Of a stretch of DNA of 63,287 bases, positions 1 to 17,648 are shown piece by piece; position 1 is the stretch's first letter; every line of letters begins with the position of its first letter. The stretch is from IMG/VR virus record IMGVR_UViG_3300048623_000041, positions 1 to 63,287 of that record, one strand, 5' to 3'. The translations under genes were made by a program, and so were the position numbers. This DNA is from a virus. The notes under the pieces were generated by a model. The model saw only the letters and a program-made list of their open reading frames with translations. It was not told the DNA's origin and made no database searches.

Positions 1-127
1 CGTGCTCGAAAGCGCCGGGGCCGTCCGCGAGCAGGAGGCGACGACGACGCCGCCGGATCCGCCATTGCCGCGATAATCGCCGCCGCTGTACCCGGCAGGA
101 TAGAAAGAGACCGCGTTACCGCCGTTG
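1..127. repeat. Exact 127-bp terminal overlap (identical to 63161..63287), marking a circular contig
   Basis: Read directly: bases 1-127 equal 63161-63287 base for base. This looks like the k-mer overlap of a circularised assembly. Unique length is 63,160 bp. Confidence 0.95.
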
Positions 128-1662
128 TTGAGGCCGAGCAGCGCCATGAGGATGCAGTCGAGCGGTCCGCCCGCGATCGTCAGCGGCGGTGGATCGGCGG
201 CGGCGCTGAGGCCGCTGCTGAACGCCATCTGCGCATTGAGCAGCGACGGACCCGAGACCGCGATCATCGCGCACGCAAATTGCTGCGCGGTGTCCGAGAC
301 GATCGTCGGGGCCGCGACATGGTCGGTTTCGGCAACGGCGTCCCGGCGGAAGATCGCGAGCTTGACGTTGGTGCTTTGTGACGCGGCATTGAGGCCCGGC
401 CAGCCGCCGGCGGGAACCGACATCAGCGGGGCATTGTCGGCGACCACGACCATGAACAGCGTGTCGCCCGGCTGGTGCGCGACCATGGCCGGTGTGAAGC
501 TGGTGCTGTCCGTGGTCGAACTGGCCGAGAGTGCTACCCCGCGCAGGGCAAGTGCCGCGGTCGTCCGGAAGCCATCGGCGCTGATCACCGCACTGTCGTT
601 GTTCGCGGCGTCGCGGTGCAGGAAATGCGTGTAATATTGGGTGTCGGCGGTCAGACCGGTCGGGGTGACGGTCTTGACGCCGATCGTGGTGATCGCGACC
701 GAACCGCTGGCGCTCGCCGCAGCACCCAGTTCGTTCTGCCCGGCCCGGATCTGCGCTCCTCCGGGCGCGGTCGGCGAGGTCGTCACCACCCACCAGAGCG
801 TGCCATTGGCCTCGTCAGTCGTGACCGATGCGGTCGCCGTCGTCTGGCCGGTCGCGGCATCGGTGGCGCCACTGAGGGTGGGCGCGATCGTGTCGACCGG
901 GGCGCCGCCGCTGTCGATCACGAGGCTGCGGTGCGTGAACTCATAGAGGTCCATCGTGGAGCGGCCACGAATTCCGGGCGCGCCGAGATCGATCAGCGGG
1001 TCGACATCGACGCCGGAGACGATGAGTACGTCGTCGACGAACACCGAAAGCGTGTAGCTGTCGTCGCCATTGTCGAGCAGCCGGAAGCGCATGGTCTTCT
1101 CGGTGTTGATCGGGAAATAGCTCGAGGCGCCAAGGCTCGATTGCGCGAGCGTGGTCTCGACCCCGGCCTGGCAGCGGTTGATCGTCAGCCGGTTCGGTGA
1201 ACCGATCGAGATGAAGCAGTCGTAGCGGGTGCCGGTCGAGAAATCGCCGACGGCCTGCAGGATCAGTCCGCAACTGGAGTTGCTGTAGCTCGAATAGCGG
1301 AACCGGGCGAGGCACTCCTGATTGACCGGCTCCGACCCCTCCAGAAGGAAGGGGTTGCCGATCTCGTCCTGAAGGATCGAGCCGTCTTCAAGCTGGACCT
1401 CGTCGCCGATCTGGTCGCAGACGTAGAACCCCGTGGCACTGCCGGCGCCGGTGATGCGCGGCGGTGTCCCGGCCTTGACCGTGAGCAGGTTGGTGGCGAT
1501 GTTGCGCCAGCTTCCGCCGGGTCCGGGAAAGAGCGCGCGCCCGGCAAGGTCCGCGCGATCGGCAACGACATTGGTCAGCTGCTCGAGCGCGTAGATCGTG
1601 AACGGATTCGGGGGCGCGATGACCCCGCCGCCTCGTCTGCCGATGAGGCCCATCATCTTCAT
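1..1662 (-). CDS. Tail-fibre-like protein: first 554 codons of a junction-spanning gene (575 aa on the circle)
   Basis: Own translation. ATG 1662-1660 (MKMMGLIGRRGGGV...) lies 4 nt after the stop of 1667..2392. The frame stays open to base 1 and continues from 63160 to TGA 63097-63095. It is missing from the ORF track because this end has no stop. It has a ConA/LamG-like stretch (aa ~115-250) and an FN3-like stretch (aa ~258-367). Confidence 0.8.
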   Translation of the reverse strand, partial: MKMMGLIGRRGGGVIAPPNPFTIYALEQLTNVVADRADLAGRALFPGPGGSWRNIATNLLTVKAGTPPRITGAGSATGFYVCDQIGDEVQLEDGSILQDEIGNPFLLEGSEPVNQECLARFRYSSYSNSSCGLILQAVGDFSTGTRYDCFISIGSPNRLTINRCQAGVETTLAQSSLGASSYFPINTEKTMRFRLLDNGDDSYTLSVFVDDVLIVSGVDVDPLIDLGAPGIRGRSTMDLYEFTHRSLVIDSGGAPVDTIAPTLSGATDAATGQTTATASVTTDEANGTLWWVVTTSPTAPGGAQIRAGQNELGAAASASGSVAITTIGVKTVTPTGLTADTQYYTHFLHRDAANNDSAVISADGFRTTAALALRGVALSASSTTDSTSFTPAMVAHQPGDTLFMVVVADNAPLMSVPAGGWPGLNAASQSTNVKLAIFRRDAVAETDHVAAPTIVSDTAQQFACAMIAVSGPSLLNAQMAFSSGLSAAADPPPLTIAGGPLDCILMALLGLNNGGNAVSFYPAGYSGGDYRGNGGSGGVVVASCSRTAPALSST

Positions 1663-1666
1663 CGGA

Positions 1667-2392
1667 TCAGGCCGTGCGGGTCCGGAAGAAGGCCTTGACG
1701 ATCACCCCGGCCACAGCCGAGCTCGGCATCTTGACGTTCCAGGCCTTGTTGGCGACCGCCTGTTCGCAGATGGCTCCGCTGTCGATCCAGCCTTCCTGCG
1801 CGCCCGCAGCGATCACGAGCTCGTCGACGACAGTGGTGTCATCGAGGATCTGCACCACCACGGTTGATCCCGGGGCCGGATTGAAGACCTTCCAGCCGAT
1901 GAGATCGTAGAACACCCCAGCCCCGCCCGCCGCCTGAATCAGCTGCGCGTTGGTATTGTTGTTCATCGCAAGCCGCGGCGATTTCGGGCCGAGCGGTGAG
2001 GCATAGACCGGCTGGCTCGCGGTCAGATCGACGGGCTCGCCACCCTCGTCCATGATGAGCGCGCGTAACGCACCGTTGGTGTCGGCGCTCAGCGGATTGT
2101 TGCTGCTGCCTTCGACATAGCTCGGGGCATCGGCCGTGGCCTTGGTGCCGTAGGCGGTGAGGATGCCCGCCAGCGCCGCGACGCCGGTGTTGAGGGTGCC
2201 AAGCAGGGCAAAGGCCTCGCTGTCGATCGAGAAGCTGAGGGTGTCTGCTTCCGATGCGCGGCCGACCGGAAAGGGATCGCCGGTGTCCGGGTGTCCGATC
2301 AGCGGGATCGCCGAGAAGATGTTGGCGGCGACCTCCTTCATGCGGGCGAAGAAGCTGCCGCCTACCTTTGGAAGTTGAACGTTGTCGGCCAT
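1667..2392 (-). CDS. Hypothetical virion protein in the fibre cluster
   Basis: 241-aa ORF with protein-like composition, tightly packed between neighbouring minus-strand genes. Confidence 0.6.
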   Translation of the reverse strand: MADNVQLPKVGGSFFARMKEVAANIFSAIPLIGHPDTGDPFPVGRASEADTLSFSIDSEAFALLGTLNTGVAALAGILTAYGTKATADAPSYVEGSSNNPLSADTNGALRALIMDEGGEPVDLTASQPVYASPLGPKSPRLAMNNNTNAQLIQAAGGAGVFYDLIGWKVFNPAPGSTVVVQILDDTTVVDELVIAAGAQEGWIDSGAICEQAVANKAWNVKMPSSAVAGVIVKAFFRTRTA

Positions 2393-2402
2393 GTCTGCCC
2401 CC

Positions 2403-2858
2403 CTAGATCGCGCCTATTACGAGATAGCTCGCGGTGAAATCATCGCCCCCGGCATCGTCCGTGGTGAAGCCGGCGGTCACGATGTTGCTGTCGAGGCCGT
2501 CGCCGTCGCGGTGGACGACGTGCAGCCAGTAGGCGGTGCCCCCGATCAGCCCTGACGACAGCGCAAGCGCCTGCTCGCCGGAACCGACGACAGCCTGCTC
2601 GCCGTCCCATGCGGCGGCCGAGCCGGTGTGATCCTGGCCGTTCCTGATCTGGGTTGCGGTCGGAGCCGATGCCGAGGTGGTGACGACCCAGAAGAGATCG
2701 CCGCCGGATTGGTCGGTGTCGACCGTCGCGGTAAAGCCGTCGGTGCCATCGCCGGATGCGACGAGATTGGAGAGCGTCGGCGCGCCGGGAATACCGCCGG
2801 GTGGCCCTGAGCCGCCTGCCAGTGTGCTGGTGAGAAAGGCGAACCAGCGCCGGAACAT
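2403..2858 (-). CDS. Small fibre-associated protein with an FN3-like domain
   Basis: 151-aa ORF. Its ATG overlaps the upstream stop. aa 27-135 resemble the FN3-like stretch of the junction-spanning fibre gene (LFWVVTTSASAPTATQIRNGQ vs LWWVVTTSPTAPGGAQIRAGQ). Confidence 0.6.
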   Translation of the reverse strand: MFRRWFAFLTSTLAGGSGPPGGIPGAPTLSNLVASGDGTDGFTATVDTDQSGGDLFWVVTTSASAPTATQIRNGQDHTGSAAAWDGEQAVVGSGEQALALSSGLIGGTAYWLHVVHRDGDGLDSNIVTAGFTTDDAGGDDFTASYLVIGAI

Positions 2859-3259
2859 CAGATGTAATTTCCTTCAAGGAACCAGACGTTGCGGCTGACG
2901 CGCTTGGCCATGATCCCGGCGAGGAAACCGTTGGTGGTGCCGGCGCTGGCGTCGGCCTTGAGGATGGTGACGCCCGCGGCCGCGACGAAGGTGACCGCTC
3001 CCGCTGCGGCCTGGATGACCGAGAACTCGGCAAATTCCGGGAACTGCTGCGTATCCTCATTGGGGATGGTGACGGCGACGCTCGATGCGCTGGACGTCAT
3101 CAGGATGATGCCAAGATCACTGACGTCGAAGGTGTGCGCGGTGCCGGCAAGCCCTTCGATCGGCGTGAACAGCGGTGCCACATCGAGCTTGCGCTGCGCA
3201 TCGGTGCGCTCTGCCCCGGTGAGGGTGTCGAACCAGCGCCCGAAGATAGACTGTCCCAT
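2858..3259 (-). CDS. Hypothetical fibre-cluster protein
   Basis: 133-aa ORF with plausible composition. Its stop overlaps the next start. Confidence 0.55.
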   Translation of the reverse strand: MGQSIFGRWFDTLTGAERTDAQRKLDVAPLFTPIEGLAGTAHTFDVSDLGIILMTSSASSVAVTIPNEDTQQFPEFAEFSVIQAAAGAVTFVAAAGVTILKADASAGTTNGFLAGIMAKRVSRNVWFLEGNYI

Positions 3260-3269
3260 GTCGTTCTCC

Positions 3270-5351
3270 TCAGACGATCGTCAGCGCCGCGGTCGCAAGC
3301 GTCGGGTAGCCGACGTCGCAGACGGCGCTGCCGTTCTTGGTGATGGTGTAGCGTCGCATCTCGCGGTCGACGGTGATGGTCGCGTCGTCGGTGACGGTGG
3401 CGCCGATCGTGACATTGCCCTTGGAGCCGCTGAGATCGATGATCCCGCCCTTCATCTTCTCGAGGTTGGCCGCCGTCAGCGTCGTCGGGAATCCGCTCGA
3501 CCCAGTGCGCTCGGTGGCGGCGGTGCCATCGTCGCTGTCGGTGTTGAAGCTGAGCAGCGTCCCCATCTGGATCGCGTAGCGGCCGAGGTGGGCGCCATAG
3601 GGGTAGTAGTTGTTCACCACCGATCCGCCGACGTGCACGCCTTCGGTCGTAACGACGTCCGAGGCGCTGAACTGGAAACCGCCGGCGTCGTTGATCCGGC
3701 CGAGATAGACCAGCGCATGCGTTGCCCCGCCCCCGGTATTCTCGTTCGCCCAGTCCTTGACGTGAATCTGGCCCGCCATGTGGCGGCAGGAGAGAAACAC
3801 GAACTTGCCGTAGCCATGGACGAAGCGGAGATTGTTCGCGGTGAAGGTGTCGGTGCCGTAGCGCTTCGACGTGCCTGAGGAGCTGAACTGGCTGCCGACC
3901 CATAGGGCATTGATGCCGTTGACCGAGCGGCATTCTCCGCTGAGCGTCGTGGCCTTGCCGTTGCGGATCAGGATCGCCGGGAGATCGGTCCCCATGTCGT
4001 TGTTGGTGCGGCTGAACGGGTCGTCGCGGCCCTCGCAGTCCATGTCGACGTGGACCGAGGTGTCGACCCCGTGATGCTCGCCGTAGAACTGCATGACGTT
4101 CGCGAGGTGGAGCCGGACGCGCAGGGTGTCGGCAGACGAGCCGTTGAGCAGATAGGCACCGATGCCGCTGTAGATGCCCCTGATCGTGAGGCTGTGCTTC
4201 TCGGACGGCCCCTGAATGCCGGTCCCGATGTAGCAGTAATTGGTGACATATTCATATTCGGCGTTGGGGCTGTCGTCGGCTTCGTGGCGGATGCCGATGC
4301 AGCTTGGCGGCGTCGTCCAGTCGCTGTTGCCATCGCCCCATACGACCACCCTGGAGCGCATCAGATCCTTGTTCGAGCCATTCGAGCCGCCGCGCACGAT
4401 GATACCGAGGCGCTTGACCTTGCCGTTCCAGAGCAGGATGTCCTGCGTCGTGATGTTCGCCTGCGCCGGCAGCGCCGCCGTGCTCGGGCTGTAGAAGCAA
4501 TAATGGGTGCCATTGCCCGCGGTGGCCGAGTTGATGCTGGCCCCGCCAGAGGTCGTCGACAGCTCGAACGTGTCGGTGGCCGGATTGCGCACGAAATATT
4601 TGGTGAGATAGGCCAGCCCGCCGGGAAGTTTGCCGGTCGAACCCAGCATGATCTCCTTGTTGGCGGCGAAGCCATGCCCGGTCTGAGTGACGACGACGGG
4701 CGTGCCCGGGGCGATCGTGCAGACGGCGTTGGCCTGCGCGGCGGTGAAGAAGGTCGATGGCCCGACGGTGGCGCCATTGGGGGCGTGCGTGCCGCCCTGG
4801 AAGCGCAGCTGCGACAGATCGCCATAGGCGCGATCGAGGAACACGGTCTCGGTGCACGACAGCACGCCGCTGCCCGTGATCTCGACCTTCATCGACTTCG
4901 AATAGGCGATGATCTCGGCGAAGCGCGTGTGCCAGCCGGTGACGGTCTCGACGCAACGGATGCCGCAGTGCTTGATGTCGAGCTTGTTGCCGGCGAGCCT
5001 GACGGCGAAGCGATGCCAGAGGCCTTCGAGAATAGGCCCGGTGGCGCCGCCGTTGGTGAAGGTGCCGACATTGCCGCCATAGGCCGAGACCCTGACCTCG
5101 ACGACGCGGAGACTCGGACCGGAGCCGGGATCGTTGCTGCCGTTGAAATAGTCGGTTGTGACCAGATCGCCGACCGCGAACGCCGCTGCCACCTGATGCA
5201 GGGCGCTCTCGTCGTCGGCCTGCGCCGCATATTTGTAGTGGCGGGTGATGACCGGACGGCGCGCCCGGCCATTGGTCGCACCCCGGGCGAGCAGGAAGTC
5301 CTCGTCCCCGGCCAGTCGCGTGCTCAGTGTCTGTTCGGATATCTTGCCCAT
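3270..5351 (-). CDS. Tailspike-like protein, probable parallel beta-helix
   Basis: ORF 3270..5408 trimmed to ATG 5351 (MGKISEQTLSTRLAGDEDFLL...), 4 nt after the upstream stop. It contains repetitive G/N/V-rich rungs typical of beta-helix spikes. The fold call is from pattern only. Confidence 0.6.
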   Translation of the reverse strand: MGKISEQTLSTRLAGDEDFLLARGATNGRARRPVITRHYKYAAQADDESALHQVAAAFAVGDLVTTDYFNGSNDPGSGPSLRVVEVRVSAYGGNVGTFTNGGATGPILEGLWHRFAVRLAGNKLDIKHCGIRCVETVTGWHTRFAEIIAYSKSMKVEITGSGVLSCTETVFLDRAYGDLSQLRFQGGTHAPNGATVGPSTFFTAAQANAVCTIAPGTPVVVTQTGHGFAANKEIMLGSTGKLPGGLAYLTKYFVRNPATDTFELSTTSGGASINSATAGNGTHYCFYSPSTAALPAQANITTQDILLWNGKVKRLGIIVRGGSNGSNKDLMRSRVVVWGDGNSDWTTPPSCIGIRHEADDSPNAEYEYVTNYCYIGTGIQGPSEKHSLTIRGIYSGIGAYLLNGSSADTLRVRLHLANVMQFYGEHHGVDTSVHVDMDCEGRDDPFSRTNNDMGTDLPAILIRNGKATTLSGECRSVNGINALWVGSQFSSSGTSKRYGTDTFTANNLRFVHGYGKFVFLSCRHMAGQIHVKDWANENTGGGATHALVYLGRINDAGGFQFSASDVVTTEGVHVGGSVVNNYYPYGAHLGRYAIQMGTLLSFNTDSDDGTAATERTGSSGFPTTLTAANLEKMKGGIIDLSGSKGNVTIGATVTDDATITVDREMRRYTITKNGSAVCDVGYPTLATAALTIV

Positions 5352-5355
5352 GGGA

Positions 5356-7065
5356 TCAAACCACCGTGTAGGGCCCGGCGCGCGCCGTAACGGGCGAGCC
5401 GATGCCATTGTTGAGGGTGATATCGAGCCAGAGGAACTTGCCCGCCGTGAGGCCCGAGGCGACCCACGACCAGGTCGAGCCCGAGAGCGTCGTCATCAGC
5501 GTGCCAGCGCCTTCGACGGCGTCGGCGCCGCTGTTTGTGTCGGTCTGGTAGATCTTGCGGGTCGCGAACGCCGTGTCGCTGAAGCCGCCGCCGGACCAGT
5601 GGCCGGTTTCGGCGCGGATCGTGGAGCCGTTGGAGAAGGTGCCGGTCAGACGCTGGACATAGTTGGCGGCAAAGATTGTCGAGGCCTTCCAGATCGGGCA
5701 GGGCTGCGCGCGGGCAACCGTATAGAGCTCGATGAGGTTGAGGTGGTCGACCGTGATCTCGATATCGAGCGTCGACGCGAATCCCCGGAAGGTGATCAGC
5801 GGCTTGGTCGCCATCGGCCCGGCCGAGCCATAGGTCGCAAAGGGCTGGCCGACGTGGAAGGCATCGACCGCGCGGCCCACGCCAGTGTTGAGCGAGGCCG
5901 AGGCGTCGCTGGCGCTGCCGAGCGTGCCGAAGGTGCCCCACACCAGCGAATAGGCCATGAGCCCGAGCGGCGAGCCGCCAGCACCATCGTCGAGCTTGAT
6001 CGCCACCATCGGCGAGAAGTAGCGACCGGGCGTGGACCCCGTTGCCGAGACGTTGGACGTCGTATCGATCAGGACCGTCTGGGTCGCAGCCGGCACGCCC
6101 GAGATGACGGCCTTGGCCTGCTTGTAGGTCGTCTGATCGACGATCGACGCAGCGACCGCCATGCTCGAGCCATTGGCGAGGTTGTTGGTGAGGATCTTGC
6201 CGGTCGGCCACTGGCCGGTCGGGGTGACGCCCGAGCCGTTGAGCGTGCCGGTCGTGCCGCCGCTGAGCAGGGTGTTGCTGTCGAAATTGGTTCCCAGCGT
6301 CGCGATATAGGTCAGAACCTCGGCGCGGGTCGCGGGAACGACCAGTGCACTTACGACATCGTAGAGGCCCGGATTTGTGCCATTCCCGAAGGCGAGCTGG
6401 CGCGCGCCGCGATCGTCGGGATGGACCTTGCTGCTGTCGCTGGAGGGCGAGAGGTTGGCGGCGTTCGAATAGTTGTAGAGCGGATAGGCATCCCAGACGG
6501 TGATACGCGGGTCGGACGCGGCCTTGCCGGTGAGATAGGCCTTCTGGATGACGTTGACGGCGGCAGAATAGGTGCTTTCGCCCGATGCGGTCGAGCCGAT
6601 CGTGGTTGAGAGCACGATGCGGATGTGATTGCCCGCCGGGATGCCGGACAGGAAGAGATCGACCAGCGCCTTCCACGCGTTCATCAAGGCAATGCCCGGC
6701 GCGCCAGCCGGGTCTGTGGTCATGATCGCGTCGTTGTGGCCGAACGATGTGAGCACGGCGATGTGATTGGCGGTGCCGACCTGCCCCGTCGCATAGGGCA
6801 TGCGCGTGGTCATCAGCGCCGCGCTGTCGCCGGAGCGGCACATGTTGTGCATCTCGCTCGGTATGACCCGGCCGGACATCTCGATCAGGGCGCGCGTGAT
6901 CGTGTTGCGCGAACCGCCCGCAGCACCCTCGCTCATCACGCCGTCGCCGATCACGGTGAACAGCGGGCTCAAGGGAAGCGGCGGCAGCGTCGAGACCGGG
7001 ACAGGTGCCCGGCCCATCATCCCGAACCGCCCGCCCATCCTGCCGAAGGTCGGCAGGGACCGCAT
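5356..7065 (-). CDS. Tail-associated protein with an SGNH/GDSL-like hydrolase N-domain (degenerate motifs)
   Basis: ORF 5356..7200 trimmed to ATG 7065, which overlaps the upstream TGA by 1 nt. Motifs: block I-like FTVIGDGVMSEG, block III SFGHND, block V-like KVHPDD. A long beta-rich C-terminal part follows. Confidence 0.55.
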   Translation of the reverse strand: MRSLPTFGRMGGRFGMMGRAPVPVSTLPPLPLSPLFTVIGDGVMSEGAAGGSRNTITRALIEMSGRVIPSEMHNMCRSGDSAALMTTRMPYATGQVGTANHIAVLTSFGHNDAIMTTDPAGAPGIALMNAWKALVDLFLSGIPAGNHIRIVLSTTIGSTASGESTYSAAVNVIQKAYLTGKAASDPRITVWDAYPLYNYSNAANLSPSSDSSKVHPDDRGARQLAFGNGTNPGLYDVVSALVVPATRAEVLTYIATLGTNFDSNTLLSGGTTGTLNGSGVTPTGQWPTGKILTNNLANGSSMAVAASIVDQTTYKQAKAVISGVPAATQTVLIDTTSNVSATGSTPGRYFSPMVAIKLDDGAGGSPLGLMAYSLVWGTFGTLGSASDASASLNTGVGRAVDAFHVGQPFATYGSAGPMATKPLITFRGFASTLDIEITVDHLNLIELYTVARAQPCPIWKASTIFAANYVQRLTGTFSNGSTIRAETGHWSGGGFSDTAFATRKIYQTDTNSGADAVEGAGTLMTTLSGSTWSWVASGLTAGKFLWLDITLNNGIGSPVTARAGPYTVV

Positions 7066-7349
7066 CAGGCGAGCGCCAGGTAGTTGAGGCGTCCGACCTC
7101 GAACCATTCCACCGAACCGGCGGGCAGCAACCTGCCGTTGCTCGTGGCAGTGGTGTCCATCGCGACGTAGTGCGCTTCGATCACGGCCACACGCAGGCAC
7201 TTGGTCGACGTGTCAGGCGCATCGGCCTGCGCCGTGCTGGTGGTGCTGGTGTAGGTCTTGCCGGTGACGCGGCGCGCCGGGTTCATCGGCACAACATTGC
7301 CGTCGACGCACGGCAGGCGGTCGTATTCAACGACGTTGATCGTCCCCAA
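7065..7349 (-). CDS. Small hypothetical virion protein
   Basis: 94-aa ORF with a TTG start. GGGGGA lies 9 nt upstream, directly after the terL N-half. Confidence 0.5.
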   Translation of the reverse strand: MGTINVVEYDRLPCVDGNVVPMNPARRVTGKTYTSTTSTAQADAPDTSTKCLRVAVIEAHYVAMDTTATSNGRLLPAGSVEWFEVGRLNYLALA

Positions 7350-7365
7350 GGCTCAGTCCCCCAAC

Positions 7366-8190
7366 TCAGCCGGGGCGCATGTCCCCTGGCAGAAATTGCA
7401 GAACCACTTCAGTCAAGCCCTGGAGCGGCGTGAATGTCAGGATCAGGATACCACGGGTGGTGGCGAGCCGGATCAGACACTCACCATATACGTCGAGAGG
7501 CACCTCCTCGTCCAGCCATATGATCTCCTTGGCCGTGCCCTCGAACGCTTTTCGGCCTTGCTCGTACGACTTGATCCCAAGGATTGACCAACCGCCGGTC
7601 TTGTGGCGGATCGGCACGGTGTCGACGAGGTTGGCGACACCCTGCTTCCAGGAGATGCCATCGATGTCGATGCAGTCGCGCGGGATCAGGCCGGAGCCAT
7701 CAACGATCTTGCGATTGTTCGCGAACCCGATCTCGCCAAGCAGTTCCTTCTGAACCGTGTCGCGCGTCGTCTCGTTCCGGGCGCCGGCCGCCCAGACGCG
7801 GACGGGCTTGCGGAACTGCCTGCCCTCCCACCATGGGCGATACTGCCCGGTCAGGTGGCTTGCGACCTCCCAGGCCCCCGCTACCGATTTTCCGATTCTG
7901 TTGGCGGCAAGGAAGCATCTTTCCCGATAGAGCTTCCCGGCCGTGAAGTGCTCCATGTGCTTCGGGTAAGCTTGCCGGCTGAGCGGCCCGTCCTCGGGAA
8001 ACAGATCATAGAACCGGTTGAACCGCGCCCGCTCCTCGTCAGCGAGGATGTCCGCCAGCAGCGCCTCGGCCTCGGCATCCGACAACGTGGCGAAGATCTG
8101 CGTCGGGTCGAACTTGTCGGGGTCGAAGCCGGGCTGCGCGCGGAGTTTCGCGGCTAGGTTATCGAGGAGGGACATCTGGCATGCGCACAA
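7366..8190 (-). CDS. terL: Terminase large subunit, N-terminal ATPase half only
   Basis: Walker A AANRIGKS, Walker B IIWLDEE, TFTP motif. The ORF ends ...VVLQFLPGDMRPG at TGA 7368-7366 and has no nuclease domain. The start may be ATG 8175 (MSLLDNL). Confidence 0.85.
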   Translation of the reverse strand: MCACQMSLLDNLAAKLRAQPGFDPDKFDPTQIFATLSDAEAEALLADILADEERARFNRFYDLFPEDGPLSRQAYPKHMEHFTAGKLYRERCFLAANRIGKSVAGAWEVASHLTGQYRPWWEGRQFRKPVRVWAAGARNETTRDTVQKELLGEIGFANNRKIVDGSGLIPRDCIDIDGISWKQGVANLVDTVPIRHKTGGWSILGIKSYEQGRKAFEGTAKEIIWLDEEVPLDVYGECLIRLATTRGILILTFTPLQGLTEVVLQFLPGDMRPG

Positions 8191-8334
8191 AGTCGGGATG
8201 CGGAAGCACGCCTTCCTTAACGCCAGCGTCGTAGAGGGTCTGGGGCACGATTACCGGCCTATAGTCGAGTTGGTGATCCTTGATCAACGTCACGATGGCG
8301 TGGACTATTTTCACGCGATTGCTTGCGAAGACCG

Positions 8335-8646
8335 TCACTGCTCGGTCTCCAAATTCACCGTCAGCCGCACCGTTACCGGATCAATGCGCTGCTGCACGAT
8401 ATCCTCCAGCGTTTCGTTCGGCATGACGTGCACGGTCAGGTCATGCATCCGCACGATCCACTCGCCGGGCTCAAGCGGAATCGGGTAGCTGCCGTCTTCG
8501 GACAGCAGGGCGACCATGTGCCCGGCCTTGGGGTGATAGCTCTCGTCCAGATATCCGCCCTTGCGCATGTCGACGAGCCAAGCAGGCATGAATTCCCACG
8601 CCCAGGCGTCGGGGGTGACGCGGATGGCTTCGATTTGCTCGGTCAT
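8335..8646 (-). CDS. Hypothetical protein
   Basis: 103-aa ORF overlapping the TerS-like stop by 4 nt. Confidence 0.55.
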   Translation of the reverse strand: MTEQIEAIRVTPDAWAWEFMPAWLVDMRKGGYLDESYHPKAGHMVALLSEDGSYPIPLEPGEWIVRMHDLTVHVMPNETLEDIVQQRIDPVTVRLTVNLETEQ

Positions 8647-9134
8647 TTCCCCGCCCCCTTCTTCTCCACGGCGTCCATGAGCTTGTCGCCCAGTAGCGAG
8701 CGGACCTCATCGGGGAGGCGGTGTTCGATCGCGGTCTTGACCGATCCGGTGTGCTTGATCCGCTGGATATTGGTGTAGCTGTCGCCGACTTCCTTCGCCG
8801 CCTGCTCCAAACAGGCACGGGCCTCAGCGATCATGCTCTTTCGCGAGGCGGTACGCTCAAGCTCCTCGAGCCGCTTGATCCGCCATGCGCGCGACGCGAT
8901 GCGACTGCCCCGTGTTTCCTTGTCGAAGGCTTCACGGGTGAGGGTATAGCGCTGCTTCCATTTGTCGGCCAGCTTATGCGCAGCAGCCCCGGTTGGATCA
9001 TATTTGGCCACCTGATCGCGGCCGATGATGACGCCGAACTGCTCCTTGAAGGCAAGCGCAACCTCCGTCGGCGTGGCGTACATCGCCAGCTCGTCAACGA
9101 TAAATGCCTGTTGCTCGCCCGTTAATGCCGCCAA
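8643..9134 (-). CDS. Terminase small subunit candidate (DUF2280-like N-terminal HTH)
   Basis: TTG start with GGGGAG upstream. LTGEQQAFIVDELAMYATPTEVALAFKEQFG resembles DUF2280 as I recall it. It lies just upstream of terL-N. Confidence 0.5.
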   Translation of the reverse strand: MAALTGEQQAFIVDELAMYATPTEVALAFKEQFGVIIGRDQVAKYDPTGAAAHKLADKWKQRYTLTREAFDKETRGSRIASRAWRIKRLEELERTASRKSMIAEARACLEQAAKEVGDSYTNIQRIKHTGSVKTAIEHRLPDEVRSLLGDKLMDAVEKKGAGK

Positions 9135-9225
9135 AATGCCGCACTCCCCGGTGTCACAATACCACTATCGCGCAGATTGATCGACTGGCTCGATAAATCC
9201 CGTTGGTTGCGCTGGGTTGCGCCGA

Positions 9226-9861
9226 TCATGCCCGCTTCCTCCGCTCGCAAGTCCCGCACGCCATGTCGACCGCGGCGGCGCCAATGCTCGGCCCCATGTT
9301 CGCAACCCGGACCATCTCACTGACGCCGGTCGCGACAGCACCGTAGCGTTCGACGACACCCACAAACTCCTCGACATCATGCCCCCTGATGGCGAACTTT
9401 GGGGAGCCGTCGCGCCCGAACTTGGGCTGTCCATATTCATCGCGATCCTGCGCCGCGTGATAAAGCTCGTGCTCGACGACGGCGCAAAACGCCGCATCGT
9501 CCGCATGGTCGCACCACGGGGCCAGCAGCGTGATCACGAAGTCCGGGACATGCCCGAACCATTGCTCAATCTGATATTCGGCGCGCGCCCGCTGCCATTT
9601 CCCCATAGCCATCGGCGGCATGATTTCGCACTGGCCAATGATGTTGCGCCCGCCCCGGCTGTTACCGATATCGGTCCAAAGAAACCCAAGCTCTGCCTGT
9701 TGCAGATGCTCATGCGCCGGGTTGTGCAACGGCCCCGCCTCGTCAATGAACGTCCGGCGTACCCATTCCTCAACCTCTGGTGCGGGCACAAAGCCCAGCA
9801 ACGGCATATCTACCGGAGGACGAGGACGGCTGTCCCGGACGAGGCGGAGCAACTTTTTCAC
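9226..9861 (-). CDS. Putative phage metallopeptidase (HExxH)
   Basis: 211 aa with VVEHELYHA and a C-terminal CGTC. Confidence 0.6.
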   Translation of the reverse strand: MKKLLRLVRDSRPRPPVDMPLLGFVPAPEVEEWVRRTFIDEAGPLHNPAHEHLQQAELGFLWTDIGNSRGGRNIIGQCEIMPPMAMGKWQRARAEYQIEQWFGHVPDFVITLLAPWCDHADDAAFCAVVEHELYHAAQDRDEYGQPKFGRDGSPKFAIRGHDVEEFVGVVERYGAVATGVSEMVRVANMGPSIGAAAVDMACGTCERRKRA

Positions 9862-10121
9862 GCCGTCTCAAACCTCGCCAGATGCTCGCTCGGCACCGTC
9901 AACCGCAACGGCTGCTCGACGGCCCTGACCGCACGGGCGAAAGCATCCTCGCCGTGTGTGGCGGCCATACTGACGTTCCGCTGATCGATGCCGGGGGTCG
10001 CCCGCAACCTGTCGATCAGGCAGTTCCAGCACGCCTCCATCGCCAGAATATCGTTGATGAGCGCGACCTCGCCGTCATCGAGATCGCGTCTGCCAACCAC
10101 TCCTCTTCCATCAGTTTCCAT
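9858..10121 (-). CDS. Hypothetical protein
   Basis: 87-aa ORF overlapping both neighbours by a few nt. Confidence 0.5.
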   Translation of the reverse strand: METDGRGVVGRRDLDDGEVALINDILAMEACWNCLIDRLRATPGIDQRNVSMAATHGEDAFARAVRAVEQPLRLTVPSEHLARFETA

Positions 10122-10926
10122 GATTATCGTCCCCGTTGTGTCCGGCCGCCGTCATGGCGGCAGGTTCAAGTTCGTCGCCAGATGTTAACGAAGATTGCCG
10201 CGCGGTCCCTCGCATGCAATTAACCTCGTCCTGTATATCTTCTTGCAACTGTTGCATTTTTTCCTCCGATGCAGGTTCGGGGAGGGCGGCGTCGACTTCG
10301 GCCTGGGTAAGCCAGCCGTTGGCGAGGCCGATGCGGATCATCGACGGGGTCATGGCGCGGATTTCCTCGGCCGTGATTGGATCCTGATCTGCGGAGAGTG
10401 GCGGCGGCAGCGACCTCGCCATTTTTCCAGGCATGTCGATCATCTCGCGCAGTCCTCGCAAACGACGGATCGCGCGATGGTGCCGGTACATGACCTCCTC
10501 TGACTTCGCGCGGATGACGCCGTCAACCTCGTTCGGGAATCGAATCGGAACATGGATCGCCTCGCGGGCGGCCTTCACGACGCCGATCTCGGGCAGGTCC
10601 GACAGGGCCATCACCATGGCGGCCAGCCAAGCCGTGGCCTGTTCCGTTGACATCGTAGGCGCGATCTTGGCACCCATGGGCCTCAAGGCGTCGGCCAGGT
10701 TCTTTGACGTCGCCCCGTCCAGCTTCGGCTCACGCTCTTTCAGCGGCGCCAGGGATTGCTCGTATTCGGCAATCGTTCGGCCGAGATCACGGAGCCGCCC
10801 GCCATAGGCGTCGCTCACCTGCCTGTATCCCCACTCATCCGCCATCGCGAGCCGGGCAAGTTCACGGTCGGGCTGCGACCCATCCTGAAGGTCGGTCGCC
10901 TGTTCGATTGCCGTTGCCATTTCCAA
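10111..10926 (-). CDS. Hypothetical early protein
   Basis: 271-aa ORF with plausible composition, downstream of the initiator-like gene. Confidence 0.55.
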   Translation of the reverse strand: MEMATAIEQATDLQDGSQPDRELARLAMADEWGYRQVSDAYGGRLRDLGRTIAEYEQSLAPLKEREPKLDGATSKNLADALRPMGAKIAPTMSTEQATAWLAAMVMALSDLPEIGVVKAAREAIHVPIRFPNEVDGVIRAKSEEVMYRHHRAIRRLRGLREMIDMPGKMARSLPPPLSADQDPITAEEIRAMTPSMIRIGLANGWLTQAEVDAALPEPASEEKMQQLQEDIQDEVNCMRGTARQSSLTSGDELEPAAMTAAGHNGDDNHGN

Positions 10927-11575
10927 ATTTCCTGTTGTTCAAAACCCAGGTTTTCCATGCGTCCTGCCAACTGACGAACTTCGCGCCGGTCTTGGCGTGG
11001 TGGGCTCGAAAGTGTTCGAGTTGATGGTCGAGTTCGCCCGGTGGCCATCCGTCGATGACCTTCTGGGATTTAGTGGTTGGGCCGAACGGTTCGGGAGCCC
11101 AGTCTTCGGGAAGCGGTCTCGCGTGCGCGCGTGACTCGGGTTTATTATTCTCTTTCTTCCCTTCTTCCCTTTCTTGTTCTGTGTCCTGTCGCTGTCCTGG
11201 GCCTGTCCCGTCTGGCGTCTTGCCGGCTGTCTTGCCGGTCTGTTTTTCAACCTGAAATAGATCGTAATTACAGATCGTTACGACGTTAACCCCTGTCTCG
11301 CTATGCGTCTTGACCATTGTCTCGGTTTTGAGACGTGTAAAAAGCCTCTCAACCCAGCCTTTCGAGCGGTCCATAGCCTCGGCGAAATCACGGATGGAGA
11401 TGGCGAGCTGGCCGCGCTGAAGGGGGACGGACAGTCCTTTATAGCGGACGCGCACGGGCCTCCACGCGGCTCTGGCAATCATCCAGGCAAAGGCCATGGC
11501 CTCGCTATCGTTGCGGAAAGCAGGATGCCCGATCAGCGATCTGTGGAGGCGGACGTAGCCAGAATCCGAGGTCAT
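10862..11575 (-). CDS. Replication initiator-like protein (N-terminal wHTH, Lys/Glu-rich linker, C-domain)
   Basis: ORF trimmed to MTSDSGYVRLHRSLIGHPAFRNDSEAMAFAWMIARAAW..., an N-terminus I recall from prophage replication proteins. The linker region holds iteron-like repeats. Confidence 0.55.
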   Translation of the reverse strand: MTSDSGYVRLHRSLIGHPAFRNDSEAMAFAWMIARAAWRPVRVRYKGLSVPLQRGQLAISIRDFAEAMDRSKGWVERLFTRLKTETMVKTHSETGVNVVTICNYDLFQVEKQTGKTAGKTPDGTGPGQRQDTEQEREEGKKENNKPESRAHARPLPEDWAPEPFGPTTKSQKVIDGWPPGELDHQLEHFRAHHAKTGAKFVSWQDAWKTWVLNNRKFGNGNGNRTGDRPSGWVAARP

Positions 11576-12099
11576 GGCGCCTCGCGCATTTCTTGCGTAA
11601 GCCTCCATACGTGGTCGGCTATCTCTGCTATGCAGCTTTCGACATCGGCATATAACTCAGAGCCCGCAAAACGCAGGACGGTGATCCGACACGATGTCAT
11701 GAATCGATCACGCCGCTTGTCGTGACGCGCTTGGTCTTTTGTGCGCTCGTGGAACTCGTGACCGTCGCACTCGACTACCACTAGGCGCCGATTTCTACCC
11801 TCATTGATGTCCAATAAAAAGTCGGCACGAAATTTCCCCACACTTGCCTGCATGTGCACATCAATGCCGTCGCCAGGCATTGTGGGAGCTTCGTCATGTT
11901 CAAAACCTGGCCGCGTGAAATACGATATCCGCGTGCCGGCGGACATGTATCCCGGCGCAAAAGCCATCAACCCGGCTAACAAAATTTCTTCTATAGGGCT
12001 TTGGCAGGCGACCTTGGTAAACTCGAATCTGCGGCGGAACACGGCCGCGCGAGCATCAGCGGCGGCTTCAATGATCGACTGAGCGCGATTTTCACTCAC
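11572..12099 (-). CDS. DUF559/Vsr-like PD-(D/E)xK endonuclease
   Basis: FRADFLL...RRLVVVECDGHEFHERTKDQARHDKRRDRFM...ITVLRF. The DNA is locally more A/T-rich. Confidence 0.65.
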   Translation of the reverse strand: MSENRAQSIIEAAADARAAVFRRRFEFTKVACQSPIEEILLAGLMAFAPGYMSAGTRISYFTRPGFEHDEAPTMPGDGIDVHMQASVGKFRADFLLDINEGRNRRLVVVECDGHEFHERTKDQARHDKRRDRFMTSCRITVLRFAGSELYADVESCIAEIADHVWRLTQEMREAP

Positions 12100-12272
12100 C
12101 CCGCCCTCCGCGCCCGCTCAGCCCCAACGATCGCAATGGCCTCGCTGCGCAGGATCCCGAAGCTCTCGACGAGCCGCATCCACGCATCGGTCATTTCGAG
12201 CGCGGCTGGTCCCATGCGCTCGACGGCGGACTGGGCCATTTCACGGGCGGCTGCGGGGTTTGGGCGGCTCAT
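12096..12272 (-). CDS. Small hypothetical protein (58 aa)
   Basis: This is the C-terminal part of track ORF 12096..12566. ATG 12272 overlaps the stop of 12269..12517 (ATGA). Confidence 0.4.
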   Translation of the reverse strand: MSRPNPAAAREMAQSAVERMGPAALEMTDAWMRLVESFGILRSEAIAIVGAERARRAG

Positions 12273-12517
12273 GCCCAGTTCGCCTTGATCGCGCACCATA
12301 CCGAGCGGCCGTTGAACAGCCGCCGCAGCGTGTAGGATCGGACGAGGGAAATGATCGTGTAGATCACACCGAGCGCGGCATTGTGGCCCACGGACAGCGG
12401 ATGTCCGGTCGCCCAAGGGATGAATATCGAATTGGCCACCATGCTGATCGCGAGGCCGATCGCGATGTTGGTCAGGCTTTCCATGAAGCTGTCGGCGCGG
12501 GACTGGTGCTCGCTCAT
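12269..12517 (-). CDS. Small membrane protein
   Basis: 82 aa with two hydrophobic segments. Overlaps both neighbours by 4 nt. Confidence 0.55.
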   Translation of the reverse strand: MSEHQSRADSFMESLTNIAIGLAISMVANSIFIPWATGHPLSVGHNAALGVIYTIISLVRSYTLRRLFNGRSVWCAIKANWA

Positions 12518-13125
12518 ACGGCCTCACCGAATTTACTGGTTTGATTTCCCCATACATCCCAGCCAAGCCGCCCTTCGCGGGCGAACATCTCGAGATATGG
12601 TCCTGCGACTAGTGCCTCAATGCGACGATGTGTTTCATCCGGCTTCCGGCTATGCTCTCGACGTGGTTCAATTATGGTCTGACGCACACCCTTCGACAGG
12701 CGGCGAGGACTTCCCCGCGTGAACAGCCAGCACGGCTCAACCTGCTTGCGCGTCCAATATCCGAACCCCATGCGGGGCTCCGCGATGTCGTTGGAGAACA
12801 TGTCGATTTGGTCGGCGTCGATCAGGCGCTGCTTGATCCAGTAGAAGGCGTCGGTCTTGAACGTAAAGCCCCATGCCGCGGCCAGTTCTATGGATTCCGC
12901 CAGATGCGAACCAACGATCCACATAAACAAGGCGCAATCCCTGGCGGCAATATCACCGACTGGAAGGGCCTTCATTTCCGCCAATTCCATGGTCCGGTAA
13001 TGATCTTCAGCGCAACGATGGGGTGTCATGTTCTCGCCCGAGAAGGTCCGAAACGCCCACGGGGGATCTGCGAGTATGACGCTATAATGATTGCGGGAAA
13101 GATCGGCGAAGGGATCGGTCAGCAT
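12514..13125 (-). CDS. MT-A70 family N6-adenine DNA methyltransferase
   Basis: ILADPPWAF (DPPW motif), about 200 aa. Confidence 0.85.
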   Translation of the reverse strand: MLTDPFADLSRNHYSVILADPPWAFRTFSGENMTPHRCAEDHYRTMELAEMKALPVGDIAARDCALFMWIVGSHLAESIELAAAWGFTFKTDAFYWIKQRLIDADQIDMFSNDIAEPRMGFGYWTRKQVEPCWLFTRGSPRRLSKGVRQTIIEPRREHSRKPDETHRRIEALVAGPYLEMFAREGRLGWDVWGNQTSKFGEAV

Positions 13126-13286
13126 GCCTGCGCCCCCAACCCTTGCCGGATGCGAAAGATGATCCCGTTGACCTGGTTCTTGGTCAGCCCGAGCGCGGTC
13201 GCGATCTGGGGCGGGGTGAATCCCTCGGCCATGTGCTCGGCGACGCTGTCGACAAGGCCGGGATTGGCGTTGCTGTTGCGGCTCAT
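13119..13286 (-). CDS. GcrA-like HTH mini-protein (55 aa)
   Basis: Own translation: MSRNSNANPGLVDSVAEHMAEGFTPPQIATALGLTKNQVNGIIFRIRQGLGAQAC. It resembles the GcrA N-terminal DNA-binding domain. Its last codons overlap the MT-A70 start. Confidence 0.5.
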   Translation of the reverse strand: MSRNSNANPGLVDSVAEHMAEGFTPPQIATALGLTKNQVNGIIFRIRQGLGAQAC

Positions 13287-13651
13287 CCGATCACCTCGAC
13301 CTTCCAGCCGCCACCGTCGCGCTTAGGGACCGGGTAAGCGACCTTGAACAAAAACGGGTAGACGTCCGCCGCGATCTTCATCTTCGCCTTGGCGTCATCA
13401 GCGAAGATCGCGGGCGAGCCCTTCACATCGATCATCTCCAGCACGCCGCTGAGGGGCAGCACCGCGAAATCGACGGTCAGGAAGGTGTTGTCGGCGAGCC
13501 GGAGCTTGATGCCCTCGAATTTGTACCAGAGGATTTCGCCGGCCAGCATCTGCAGGCGCAGGACGTCGTCATACGCTTTCTCGGTCTTGTTCTGCTCGCC
13601 GGTTTTCAGCCGACCGAGTGCGAAATGCTTGTTGCCGCCGCGCCAGTTCAT
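13283..13651 (-). CDS. DUF1064-like (PD-(D/E)xK, resolvase-like) protein
   Basis: Trimmed to MNWRGGNKHFALGRLKTGEQNKTEKAYDDVLRLQMLAGEI...VDFAVL...EMIDVKG. Confidence 0.55.
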   Translation of the reverse strand: MNWRGGNKHFALGRLKTGEQNKTEKAYDDVLRLQMLAGEILWYKFEGIKLRLADNTFLTVDFAVLPLSGVLEMIDVKGSPAIFADDAKAKMKIAADVYPFLFKVAYPVPKRDGGGWKVEVIG

Positions 13652-13983
13652 CCCACTGTCTCCGGCGCCTTCTTCCGCTTCCGGACGAGCATGGTGAACT
13701 CGTCTTCGGCGGGGCGGATTTTCCTGAACCCGACGCACTCATAGGGATTGGACTTGCCGACGAAGCGCAGCCAATACGCGCGATATCCCCGTTTCTGGTC
13801 AACCGCGTCCTCCACCGAGGAGACACGCAGCACGTCGCCTTTTCTGGGGTCGAACGCATCCACGGTGGGTAGCCACTCGTCATTGACGCAGACGGCCAAA
13901 TCGCCGGGCGCCCAATCCTCGTTGAGATTGCGGTGGTCAGAGATTGCAGGCGGCGCGGGTTTGCGGCGAAACGGCCAGATCAT
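13648..13983 (-). CDS. Hypothetical protein
   Basis: 111-aa ORF, tightly packed. Confidence 0.5.
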   Translation of the reverse strand: MIWPFRRKPAPPAISDHRNLNEDWAPGDLAVCVNDEWLPTVDAFDPRKGDVLRVSSVEDAVDQKRGYRAYWLRFVGKSNPYECVGFRKIRPAEDEFTMLVRKRKKAPETVG

Positions 13984-14220
13984 TCACACCCCCATCAATG
14001 GATCGTGGCGGGCCGCCCGACGGGTGCCATGCCCACGTGTGGACGCCTGCGACCTGGTCGGACGCGCGGCCTTGCGCTGGGCGAGACGGGCCTCGGTCCA
14101 GCGGTCGGCCTCGTCCACGGATGCGAACGACAGCGCCGGGAGATGGGCGGCGGGAAGCGGCTGCTCGCTATGGAACAGCCGCCCCGCGACCCGGCGAAGG
14201 TGCTGGAGTGCCCCTCGCAT
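13984..14220 (-). CDS. Hypothetical protein
   Basis: 78-aa ORF filling the gap exactly. GC-rich third codon positions. Confidence 0.4.
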   Translation of the reverse strand: MRGALQHLRRVAGRLFHSEQPLPAAHLPALSFASVDEADRWTEARLAQRKAARPTRSQASTRGHGTRRAARHDPLMGV

Positions 14221-14225
14221 GGGAG

Positions 14226-15185
14226 TTAGGACTCTGGAGAGCCAAGAAACAGCGGCAGGCCAGTCTCATCACGAGCTCGCGTAACCGCCTCGATGAAGGC
14301 GTCGTCGAACGCGCGATCGGCGCGCCACAGTTGGTAGAAGAATACCGGACGGCCATCCTTGATGCGGTAACGCAGGCGTGCAGCGAGGCGGTAGGCTGGT
14401 CCATTGTTGAAGATCGGGATCGTTATCAGGAACATGCTCGGGATGCTCACCGGGCCGCCGGTCTCGGGGTTTTCGTGGCGGGTCTGGAAGATGATCTGCC
14501 CTTCGCCAGACGTCAGATTTGCATGTTGGGCGACGTTCGCCACCTCGTTGATCTTCAGGCCCTGAGACAAACCAACCAACGCGGTTGGCGTCGCAATCCG
14601 GCCACTTCCGCCCGTGACAGCGGTGATATACCGCTGAAGGTCGGCCGAGATTTCCAGCGAGACGTCGGGGTCGACGACGTCAATGATACGGTCTTCAAGA
14701 AAGGCCGCGAACTCGGCCATAGCCATGAGTTTGTCGTTCTGCGCGACCCATGCCTGCCATTCGTCCGACAGCGGGAACACATAATGGCCGCGATGATCCC
14801 CGAAGCGCGGAGTCGCCTTGACGGCGGCCTTGTCCTCGGGGGTGGTTCCGTTGTTATAGTTCAGGATGGAGGTGATCGACGGACGCTCGCGCTTGTCGAT
14901 CGCAAACAGTGCGCTTTGGTCATCGGAAAAGCGGTTGGTCCATGCAATGAAGCTATCGAGACTGGTGAGGCTGGCCATACCCTTCAGTCGTTTCGGGGCG
15001 TCTCGAAACTGGTCGAACCATTCTGGATTCACCGGCTGGACACGGGCTCCGGCAAGCACGAGCGCGCTTTTGACACCCGTGCCCGGCTCCGCGATCGAAA
15101 TAACCTTCGGGTCGACATATGCTTCGACTAGGCTGCGGACCTCTTGAACAAGGCCGTCCGCCTCAACATTTGCAGTATCAGACAT
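14226..15185 (-). CDS. DUF2303 (YfdQ-like) protein
   Basis: 319 aa. Overall pattern recalled from phage early regions. Memory-based call. Confidence 0.5.
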   Translation of the reverse strand: MSDTANVEADGLVQEVRSLVEAYVDPKVISIAEPGTGVKSALVLAGARVQPVNPEWFDQFRDAPKRLKGMASLTSLDSFIAWTNRFSDDQSALFAIDKRERPSITSILNYNNGTTPEDKAAVKATPRFGDHRGHYVFPLSDEWQAWVAQNDKLMAMAEFAAFLEDRIIDVVDPDVSLEISADLQRYITAVTGGSGRIATPTALVGLSQGLKINEVANVAQHANLTSGEGQIIFQTRHENPETGGPVSIPSMFLITIPIFNNGPAYRLAARLRYRIKDGRPVFFYQLWRADRAFDDAFIEAVTRARDETGLPLFLGSPES

Positions 15186-15207
15186 ATCTATCTTCCTTTT
15201 ATGGGGG

Positions 15208-15600
15208 TCACATCACGTCGCGGACTGCGGATCCGCCGCTGACATCACGCATGCCGAACAGCTGGCCCTGATAGGGTCGGTTGGGCGTGAAGCGGTTGTC
15301 TTCGGTGGTCCACATGGGGGTGCGCGGACGCTTCGGCGCTTCCGCCTTCACCGCATGGGTCGGTGCGAGATAGAAGACCGCGCCCTCCATCGTGAACTTG
15401 ATCTTGATGGTCAGCTCGCCCTTGGCCTTGCCGCCGGACTGAATGGCAGTCGCGTGCATATCCGCCGCGAGTTCCTTCAGATCTTCGTACACATCCGCAG
15501 AAAACTGCCCGTCTTCCAGGATGTTTATGAATTCGCCGAGTGTCGACGCGGCAGGCATGAGGTGAGCGCCGTCTGCGGCGCGCGTAGTGTCGTCAGACAT
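15208..15600 (-). CDS. Hypothetical early protein
   Basis: 130-aa ORF. Confidence 0.55.
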   Translation of the reverse strand: MSDDTTRAADGAHLMPAASTLGEFINILEDGQFSADVYEDLKELAADMHATAIQSGGKAKGELTIKIKFTMEGAVFYLAPTHAVKAEAPKRPRTPMWTTEDNRFTPNRPYQGQLFGMRDVSGGSAVRDVM

Positions 15601-16433: not shown

Positions 16434-16436
16434 CGT

Positions 16437-16742: not shown

Positions 16743-16753
16743 AGACAATAAAA

Positions 16754-16770: not shown

Positions 16771-16790
16771 TTTGTCAATGCCTCTCATTG

Positions 16791-16805: not shown

Positions 16806-16829
16806 GACTGTACGGCGCCGCTCGCGTAT

Positions 16830-17632: not shown

Positions 17633-17648
17633 TTCTCGCTTGACGGGT

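Follow-up and report, generated by a model that had tools for sequence, protein, structure and literature searches.

The DNA analysed here (the window: positions 1 to 63,287 of IMG/VR virus record IMGVR_UViG_3300048623_000041) raises the question of how a virus can use a large terminase subunit (TerL) whose parts are encoded by two open reading frames (ORFs) lying 16 kb apart. TerL is the most conserved protein of tailed phages and a standard marker for phylogeny, prophage detection and genome completeness, and it is taken to be a single chain. An earlier note on this DNA had offered three explanations: that the motor works as two polypeptides, that a 16-kb module was inserted into terL, or that the DNA is rearranged before packaging. 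The first is the one that the evidence below supports. Probably, terL is inherited here as two genes whose products assemble non-covalently, while the gap between the genes collects cargo.

The window carries terL in two complementary pieces

Positions 63161-63287 are an exact copy of bases 1-127; this 127-bp terminal duplication is an assembly overlap, and the window is therefore a circular contig of 63,160 bp (62.9% GC). Two intact ORFs on its minus strand, just as the earlier note described them, correspond to the parts of TerL. TerL-N (7366..8190, 274 aa) is the ATPase core piece, assigned by its Terminase_6N match, motifs, alignment and AlphaFold2 (AF2) model; TerL-C (53762..54520, 252 aa) is assigned by its Terminase_6C and phrog_5653 matches, motifs and alignment. 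In the reading direction the same-strand pieces are separated by 7365 + 8640 = 16,005 bp, and recomputing this distance on the circle reproduced the value in the note.

TerL-N matches positions 1-153 of the 215 in the Pfam Terminase_6N profile (1.7e-13) and contains a Walker A motif (AANRIGKS, residues 95-102), a Walker B motif (IIWLDEE, 223-229) and motif III (TFTP, 252-255). Residues K101, D227, E228 and T252-P255 are invariant across 114 sequences, and the label given to the protein by PHROGs is 'unknown function'. TerL-C matches Terminase_6C (1.2e-6) and phrog_5653, 'terminase large subunit' (2.4e-19), and carries the motifs GLDVGW, YAEHYRG and DDHLMDAKRY; its start codon is a GTG that immediately follows an in-frame TAG. 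The acidic nuclease residues of TerL-C are invariant across 95 fused homologues, and the conserved nuclease residues are D353, E378, D488 and D492 in the numbering of the concatenated N+C protein. Compared with TerL of the Terminase_6N/6C type, the pair thus has the ATPase and nuclease motifs but consists of two ORFs rather than a single chain. The genomic context is also that of this type and is collinear with relatives: a gene for a DUF2280 protein, the presumed small terminase (terS; 8643..9134, minus strand), lies 5′ of TerL-N, as it does in relatives, and an SU10-type portal gene (51399..53750, minus strand) lies 11 nt 3′ of the TerL-C stop codon.

The intact 480-aa TerL of EBPR podovirus 1 aligns with TerL-N over residues 3-234 and with TerL-C over residues 241-465. 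This leaves seven unaligned residues at the break in the window versus six in the intact protein, so that the pieces are complementary, as the earlier note had proposed. Between motif III and the WDDxPHL motif there are 33 residues in the window, and a median of 31 (range 24-37) in fused proteins. On these alignments the pieces tile an intact homologue, with nothing lost or duplicated. The note had seen no intact terL, and a tblastn search found no third copy in the window.

Independent assemblies reproduce both ends of the separation. Logan contig SRR26075018_6325 (30.9 kb) is 100% identical over TerL-N, the eight genes downstream of it, the circle closure and a convergent 124-aa gene, and Logan contig SRR26075018_26721 (16.9 kb) is 100% identical over the methylase block, TerL-C, the portal gene and the head genes. 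The N junction is additionally covered by a JGI contig, again with 100% identity. The two Logan contigs terminate at the two copies of a 143-bp direct repeat (57210-57352 and 58113-58255, 89% identity) that is confined to the inside of a plus-strand block and leaves the topology unaffected. The ORFs adjoining this repeat (57192-57851 and 57987-58316) both carry the peptide IAPSEWAERDRC.

The break lies inside the ATPase domain

The earlier note had placed the break at a short linker leading into the nuclease. The Terminase_6N profile, the alignment with P22 and the AF2 model place it instead within the ATPase domain, 19 residues past motif III in a loop, and not at the domain hinge. Concatenating the pieces raised the Terminase_6N score from 51 to 70 bits, with the match extending over residues 92-330 of the joined protein (profile positions 1-210 of 215), and the first 77 residues of TerL-C alone match profile positions 169-210. 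The P22 nuclease domain (4DKW), which was the sole return of a PDB sequence search, begins to align only at TerL-C residue 48. Upstream of this point, residues 1 to ~47 comprise a beta-strand, an invariant W(D/S)DxPHL motif and two helices; they are predicted to complete the ATPase domain, with residues ~48-252 forming the RNase H-like nuclease.

An AF2 model was built for the artificial N+C fusion from a 114-sequence alignment in which the homologues are mostly fused (predicted local distance difference test, pLDDT, 92.4; predicted template modelling score, pTM, 0.85); a single-sequence AF2 prediction of the concatenated protein was discarded (pLDDT 34). In the model motif III lies in strand 248-253 and is followed by helix 261-266, and the loop that holds the break (267-281) is the sole low-confidence block of the core (pLDDT 67). 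The part encoded by the 3′ piece continues with strand 282-287, helices 297-306 and 309-317, and the nuclease sheet from residue 348. Going by the standard topology of the additional strand catalytic E (ASCE) fold, strand 282-287 should be the last core strand, with the lid next, and the hinge between lid and nuclease stays covalent within TerL-C. Foldseek matched the model to the terminases of D6E (1e-20), T4 (gp17), HK97 and P22, with a TM-score of 0.82 for the P22 nuclease.

The same break recurs in a clade of relatives

The earlier note had treated this locus as a unique case. We combined loci from IMG/VR with those from GTDB (one genome per species), yielding 212 non-redundant loci with both junction-proximal parts present. 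terL is split at the same position, with N before C, at 99 of these loci and fused at 111, and at the remaining two TerL-C lies upstream of TerL-N. In a set of 5.8 billion proteins, the 120 best matches to TerL-N all have lengths of 230-285 aa, with 53-68% identity. Where the N piece is at least 56% identical to that of the window, terL is split in 36 of 39 cases; at 53-56% identity it is split in 17 of 21, and below 50% in about 30%. In a neighbour-joining (NJ) tree of 241 ATPase regions, 121 split proteins fall into one clade with only four fused members, and parsimony on this tree gives ~4 state changes with a fused root; since the sampling is biased by the ranking of two hit lists and the NJ method is crude, the number of origins is approximate. 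By this tree the split proteins constitute essentially one clade. Fused proteins nested within it are unusually long (P0159, 541 aa; P0126, 541 aa; P0141, 816 aa) and may have arisen by re-fusion or result from gene calls that read through; an intein domain (PF14890) is present in P0159.

Isolates that carry the split in their genomes include Sphingopyxis flava, Novosphingobium THN1, Novosphingobium FKTRR1, Azospirillum agricola, Fulvimarina endophytica, Bosea and several Mesorhizobium, and many of the relatives are prophages in bacterial chromosomes. On the chromosome of Novosphingobium sp. THN1, for example, the order is a metallopeptidase, DUF2280, TerL-N (270 aa), a 161-nt spacer, TerL-C (248 aa) and the portal gene. 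The two-ORF state is retained across lineages that are just 40-68% identical. The C pieces start at a conserved MPE(I/V)xSSK, often coupled to the preceding gene through a ATGCCTGA or TGATG stop/start overlap; in loci with cargo, the overlap via TGATG is often with the final cargo gene. This conserved start and the stop/start coupling are signs that the C pieces may be independently translated. A 'CCTATAnnGAC' element noticed by eye in a few spacers did not prove general, and was dropped; many relatives have the start of TerL-C overlapping the cargo gene before it. A further trait of the split clade lies at the other end of the N piece (in TerL-N, residues 1-63, positions 8002-8190), which is ~27 residues longer before FPDxGP, with a median of 58 residues in split-clade N pieces versus 31 in fused relatives. 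The extra residues may reflect lineage history or be related to a heterodimer.

At the two loci with reversed order the pieces are on the same strand. In L088, TerL-C (9920-10747) is followed by a 273-nt gap, TerL-N (11021-11785) and then the portal gene; L089, a distinct sequence from a distinct viral contig, has the same order with ~270 nt between the pieces, again followed by the portal gene. Pfam places the break where it is in the window, the N pieces matching Terminase_6N positions 1-152 and the C pieces matching positions 160-212 together with Terminase_6C. With TerL-C before TerL-N, no mechanism acting in cis could join N to C at these loci.

The gap between the pieces varies and holds unrelated cargo

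We measured the gap from the N stop to the C start at the 99 split loci, within flanks of 10 kb. It ranges from -50 nt to 8.9 kb and contains unrelated genes, some on the opposite strand. The pieces are adjacent or overlapping in 39 of the 99 relatives (33 overlapping, with stop/start coupling of the ATGCCTGA type, and six with a gap of 0-100 nt); the gap is 0.1-1 kb at 36 loci, 1-3 kb at 13 and 3-8.9 kb at ten. At least six loci (L017, L049, L184, L186, L204 and L208) have no C piece within ~10 kb 3′ of N, and two of these contigs (L017 and L049), whose C piece is more than 10 kb away, were also missed by a profile search for C pieces. The two closest long relatives (~65% identity) are collinear with the window on either side of the gap, and the gap itself is 6.06 kb in one (L130, with genes on both strands) and 245 nt in the other (L132).

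In the window, the 16-kb arc between the pieces comprises minus-strand stretches (1..7349 and 60946..63160; 65.5% GC) that converge at ~60.93 kb with a plus-strand block. Eight genes co-oriented with TerL-N come after it, so that TerL-N, contrary to the earlier note, does not end an operon. All on the minus strand, they encode proteins of 94 aa (7349..7065), ~569 aa (~7067..5356), ~693 aa (5408..3270), 133 aa (3259..2858), 151 aa (2858..2403), 241 aa (2392..1667), 575 aa (1662..63095, wrapping the circle) and 711 aa (63081..60946). The genes have a high GC content at third codon positions and Ala/Thr/Gly-rich products, and some give weak matches to tail-fibre PHROGs. The opposite-strand block (54638..60909, plus strand; 6.3 kb, 58.4% GC) encodes a C5 DNA methyltransferase (54638-55387), a NinI-like phosphatase (55827-56549) and small ORFs.

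A tblastn search with the arc proteins found no cargo common to the window and the related loci. The relatives nevertheless have cargo of a similar kind, in which large fibre-like proteins rich in Ala, Thr and Gly reach 1144 aa. A small protein of 94-135 aa, recognized by eye, recurs in the gaps (window 7065-7349, minus strand; L022, L039, L042, L050 and L051), often beside a large fibre-like protein and with the pattern ...TEYA.L...GTAPTA.TT...AGETRF.GV...; it is perhaps a decoration protein or one associated with fibres. The gap has the look of a recurrent landing site for fibre-like and other cargo, which bears on how host-range modules move. Of the idea that a 16-kb module was inserted into terL, the 16 kb of cargo stands; the split, however, long predates this genome, and the gap was there before the cargo.

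TerL-C lies behind a presumed operator region

Directly 5′ of TerL-C, a divergent intergenic region of 117 nt (54521..54637) is AT-rich, with 40% GC, and contains two inverted copies of AATACGATAT (54532-54541 and 54619-54628) as well as a 12-nt imperfect palindrome. It is presumed to be the promoter/operator of the TerL-C-portal-capsid unit. Allowing at most one mismatch, AATACGATAT occurs ten times in the window versus 0.87 expected, a number reached in none of 100 shuffles. The copies, several of them intergenic, lie at 11919, 12424, 16761, 17616-17665, 34468, 40265, 54532 and 54619, and four of them flank a CI-like repressor gene (16788-17471), one upstream and three downstream. AATACGATAT is probably an operator/promoter element of a phage regulator. 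With 16 kb of cargo between the pieces, including a block on the opposite strand, TerL-C would need transcription independent of that of TerL-N, driven by a regulatory region of its own.

The string GT(T/G)GGGG, to which the earlier note had drawn attention, is indeed present at both junctions. It is not conserved in relatives, and the k-mers common to the two junctions (three 8-mers versus 1.4 expected, and no 9-mer) are at chance level, so that the shared string is attributed to chance.

Two chains probably assemble into one terminase

On the two-gene reading, chain 1 (TerL-N) would supply the ATPase core through motif III and the helix that follows it, and chain 2 (TerL-C) would supply the next beta-strand, the W-D-D-x-P-H-L motif, two helices, a linker and the whole RNase H-like nuclease. 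The break would lie in a flexible surface loop, and the start of chain 2 would dock on chain 1 and complete the ATPase domain. The docked chains would form a non-covalent heterodimer that acts like an ordinary TerL, a case of fragment complementation. Once terL consists of two genes, the space between them would become an ordinary intergenic site within the packaging and head block, neutral or useful for cargo; different phages would gather different cargo, and that of the window would have grown to 16 kb.

Several points weigh against this reading. For this genome, production of the two proteins, their binding to each other and the formation of virions are predictions from sequence. The AF2 model derives from an artificial fusion and mostly fused homologues and is therefore no test of a heterodimer, and the docking of strand 282-287 into the ATPase sheet is predicted from the secondary structure, the Pfam model and what is generally known of the ASCE fold. 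The segment at 57.3-58.2 kb is spanned solely by the window's own assembly. With flanks of at most 10 kb, a second locus with a measured gap above 8.9 kb was not recovered. Scans for sigma-70 and terminator consensus sequences at both junctions and the convergent point returned nothing, which is uninformative for this kind of host.

The alternatives differ in whether the chains meet, whether they are still in use, and whether they are joined before they act. It is rather improbable that they form no complex, the ATPase ring of the motor consisting of TerL-N alone and TerL-C cutting at headful as a free nuclease. Some packaging ATPases, such as gp16 of phi29, do lack an active nuclease, and the two terL genes of the window are in different transcription units. 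However, the first ~47 residues of TerL-C belong to the model of the ATPase domain, their W, P and H being invariant in 95 fused homologues; the break is in an intradomain loop and not at the hinge; and translational coupling in many relatives suggests 1:1 production. Conservation makes it very unlikely that the element is defective, or uses the terminase of a helper, and that the pieces are decaying pseudogenes. The many relatives that are prophages would fit such relics, as would the fact that the genome is known from sequence alone. Yet neither ORF is truncated and no catalytic motif is lost, the two-ORF state has been kept between lineages of low identity, the C pieces keep a conserved start and are in many cases translationally coupled to N, and the genome, circular and complete, has a full head and portal module. 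A further variant accepts the heterodimer and adds a function to the split; we regard it as unlikely, if somewhat less so than independent action of the chains. In this two-key switch the TerL chains would be under different control, so that active terminase is made only when the late unit fires, and the gap would serve as a protected docking site for the swapping of host-range modules. TerL-N lies beside terS and the fibre-like genes, and TerL-C behind the operator-rich region that shares AATACGATAT with the region of the CI repressor. The split may also change how bacterial sensors of terminase (Avs/Upx) recognise the enzyme; split terminases are not a subject of the Avs2/Upx paper.

The non-covalent pairing of two chains can also be set against mechanisms that would restore a single chain. 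Post-transcriptional or post-translational joining, through a split intein, a trans-splicing intron, ribosomal bypass or frameshifting, is highly improbable. Inteins, introns and homing endonucleases do often interrupt terL (Mic1, PMC7156551; DES1), and frameshifting is conceivable in those relatives whose pieces overlap slightly (-8 to -19 nt). Against this, the pieces abut with a loop of normal length, leaving no room for intein halves, and Pfam finds no intein match in them. An Rfam search of the window, at the gathering threshold only, returned two tRNAs and no group I or II intron; genes on the opposite strand lie within the 16-kb separation; and the gene order is reversed in L088 and L089. 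A programmed rearrangement, in which site-specific excision of the 16-kb arc rebuilds terL in the manner of the skin and nifD elements, has an equally slight probability, and the proposal of the earlier note to this effect found no support. A deletion would unite the two pieces, since they share a strand, and GT(T/G)GGGG is present at both junctions. No repeat above chance level, however, links the junctions as att-like sites would, and no recombinase or integrase was found among 20 arc and other candidate proteins (searched against Pfam, ten of them also against PHROGs, with the small ORFs covered in part). Excision would moreover delete the fibre-like genes, an in-frame join would still need the removal of codons since each piece has its own stop or start, and relatives show every gap size without a common repeat. 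Least probable of all is a chimeric or mis-joined contig, an outcome that the earlier note had named as a possible refutation. The window is a metagenomic circular contig, and the 143-bp repeat of the plus-strand block breaks the Logan assembly; but that repeat touches only the inside of the block, the Logan and JGI contigs are identical across the junctions, and relatives share the same design.

Comparison with other divided genes

Consecutive two-gene TerLs are already on record. In plaque-forming Arthrobacter phages of cluster AY the ATPase and nuclease domains are encoded by two consecutive genes (PMC11920828), for example genes 2 and 3 of BillyTP (PMC11920828, PMC12820723). As in the window, ATPase and nuclease are on separate ORFs between terS and portal, and the phages are viable. 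The genes of cluster AY are adjacent, whereas in the clade of the window the gap measures anything between 0 and 16 kb and some loci have the pieces in reverse order. The cluster AY protein is also of another family, matching PF20441 (TerL_nuclease) only and neither Terminase_6N nor Terminase_6C, so the break points are not comparable; the BillyTP pieces are 359 and 198 aa with a 17-nt overlap, and those of the window are 274 and 252 aa with the break inside the ATPase domain. Single-chain headful TerLs (P22 gp2, Sf6 gp2, T4 gp17 and D6E TerL) share fold, motifs and terS-portal position with the window pieces, and differ in that the chain in the window is interrupted 19 residues past motif III.

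Among other enzymes, the closest parallels in concept are genes-in-pieces produced by a free-standing homing endonuclease and the split RNA polymerase of N4-like phages. Genes 39 and 60 of the T4 topoisomerase belong to the former. The nrdA gene of Aeromonas phage Aeh1 is split by the homing endonuclease mobE (Friedrich et al, 2007 PNAS, as cited in PMC5418858). In both, an essential enzyme is made as two reassembling polypeptides and the break tolerates inserted DNA. The window differs in that no free-standing endonuclease was detected in its arc and that the cargo is mostly of structural type and many kilobases long; the function of its pieces is predicted from sequence. HNH-type ORFs are visible by eye in the gaps of the split relatives L037, L044 and L051. 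In N4-like phages the RNA polymerase genes RNAP1 and RNAP2 have 0-8 spacer genes between them (PMC5418858), which parallels the split terL in that the halves of an enzyme are separated by a variable number of unrelated genes, though the enzyme is a different one and a long-recognised heterodimer. Split-intein genes such as cyanobacterial dnaE-n/dnaE-c, and other 'fractured genes' (PMC2677866), likewise place halves of one protein far apart on the same genome; with no intein sequence in the window pieces, covalent ligation is not expected, unlike in dnaE-n/dnaE-c.

In the literature, which was incompletely covered, we found no paper on terL pieces that are non-adjacent or reversed, on a break within the ATPase domain or on a gap that takes up cargo, and on split terminases only the genome announcements for cluster AY. 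The window is an extreme member of a large and previously unremarked split-terL clade. A widespread alphaproteobacterial clade with TerL in two pieces, sometimes distant or reversed, would be mis-scored as having no or a partial terminase, and the break inside the ATPase domain would offer a natural split-enzyme system for studying communication between ATPase core, lid and nuclease in the packaging motor.

Terminase genes can be divided elsewhere too. In Xanthomonas phage DES1 (L002, 3803-6136) terL is interrupted at another place in the ATPase part by a ~780-nt insert with a 165-aa ORF and is annotated as two terminase genes; this looks like an interruption of the ordinary intron or homing-endonuclease kind.

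Other features of the window

The two tRNA genes, for Met (CAT; 40357-40433) and Arg (TCT; 40975-41051), are on the plus strand between the structural block and a block with a giant ORF. The latter is a single ORF of 3,249 aa (27102-36851, minus strand) that takes up ~15% of the genome. Near it, a 207-aa protein (26269-26892, plus strand) has a C-terminal PEP-CTERM sorting motif (Pfam 2.1e-7), which is unusual for a phage. Located 5′ of terS, the window has at 9858-10121 (minus strand) a weak precomputed match to an anti-defence Acb2/Tad1 hairpin, and at the corresponding side of terS the Novosphingobium THN1 prophage (L004, 1557-1879) has a precomputed Tad2-like anti-defence match.

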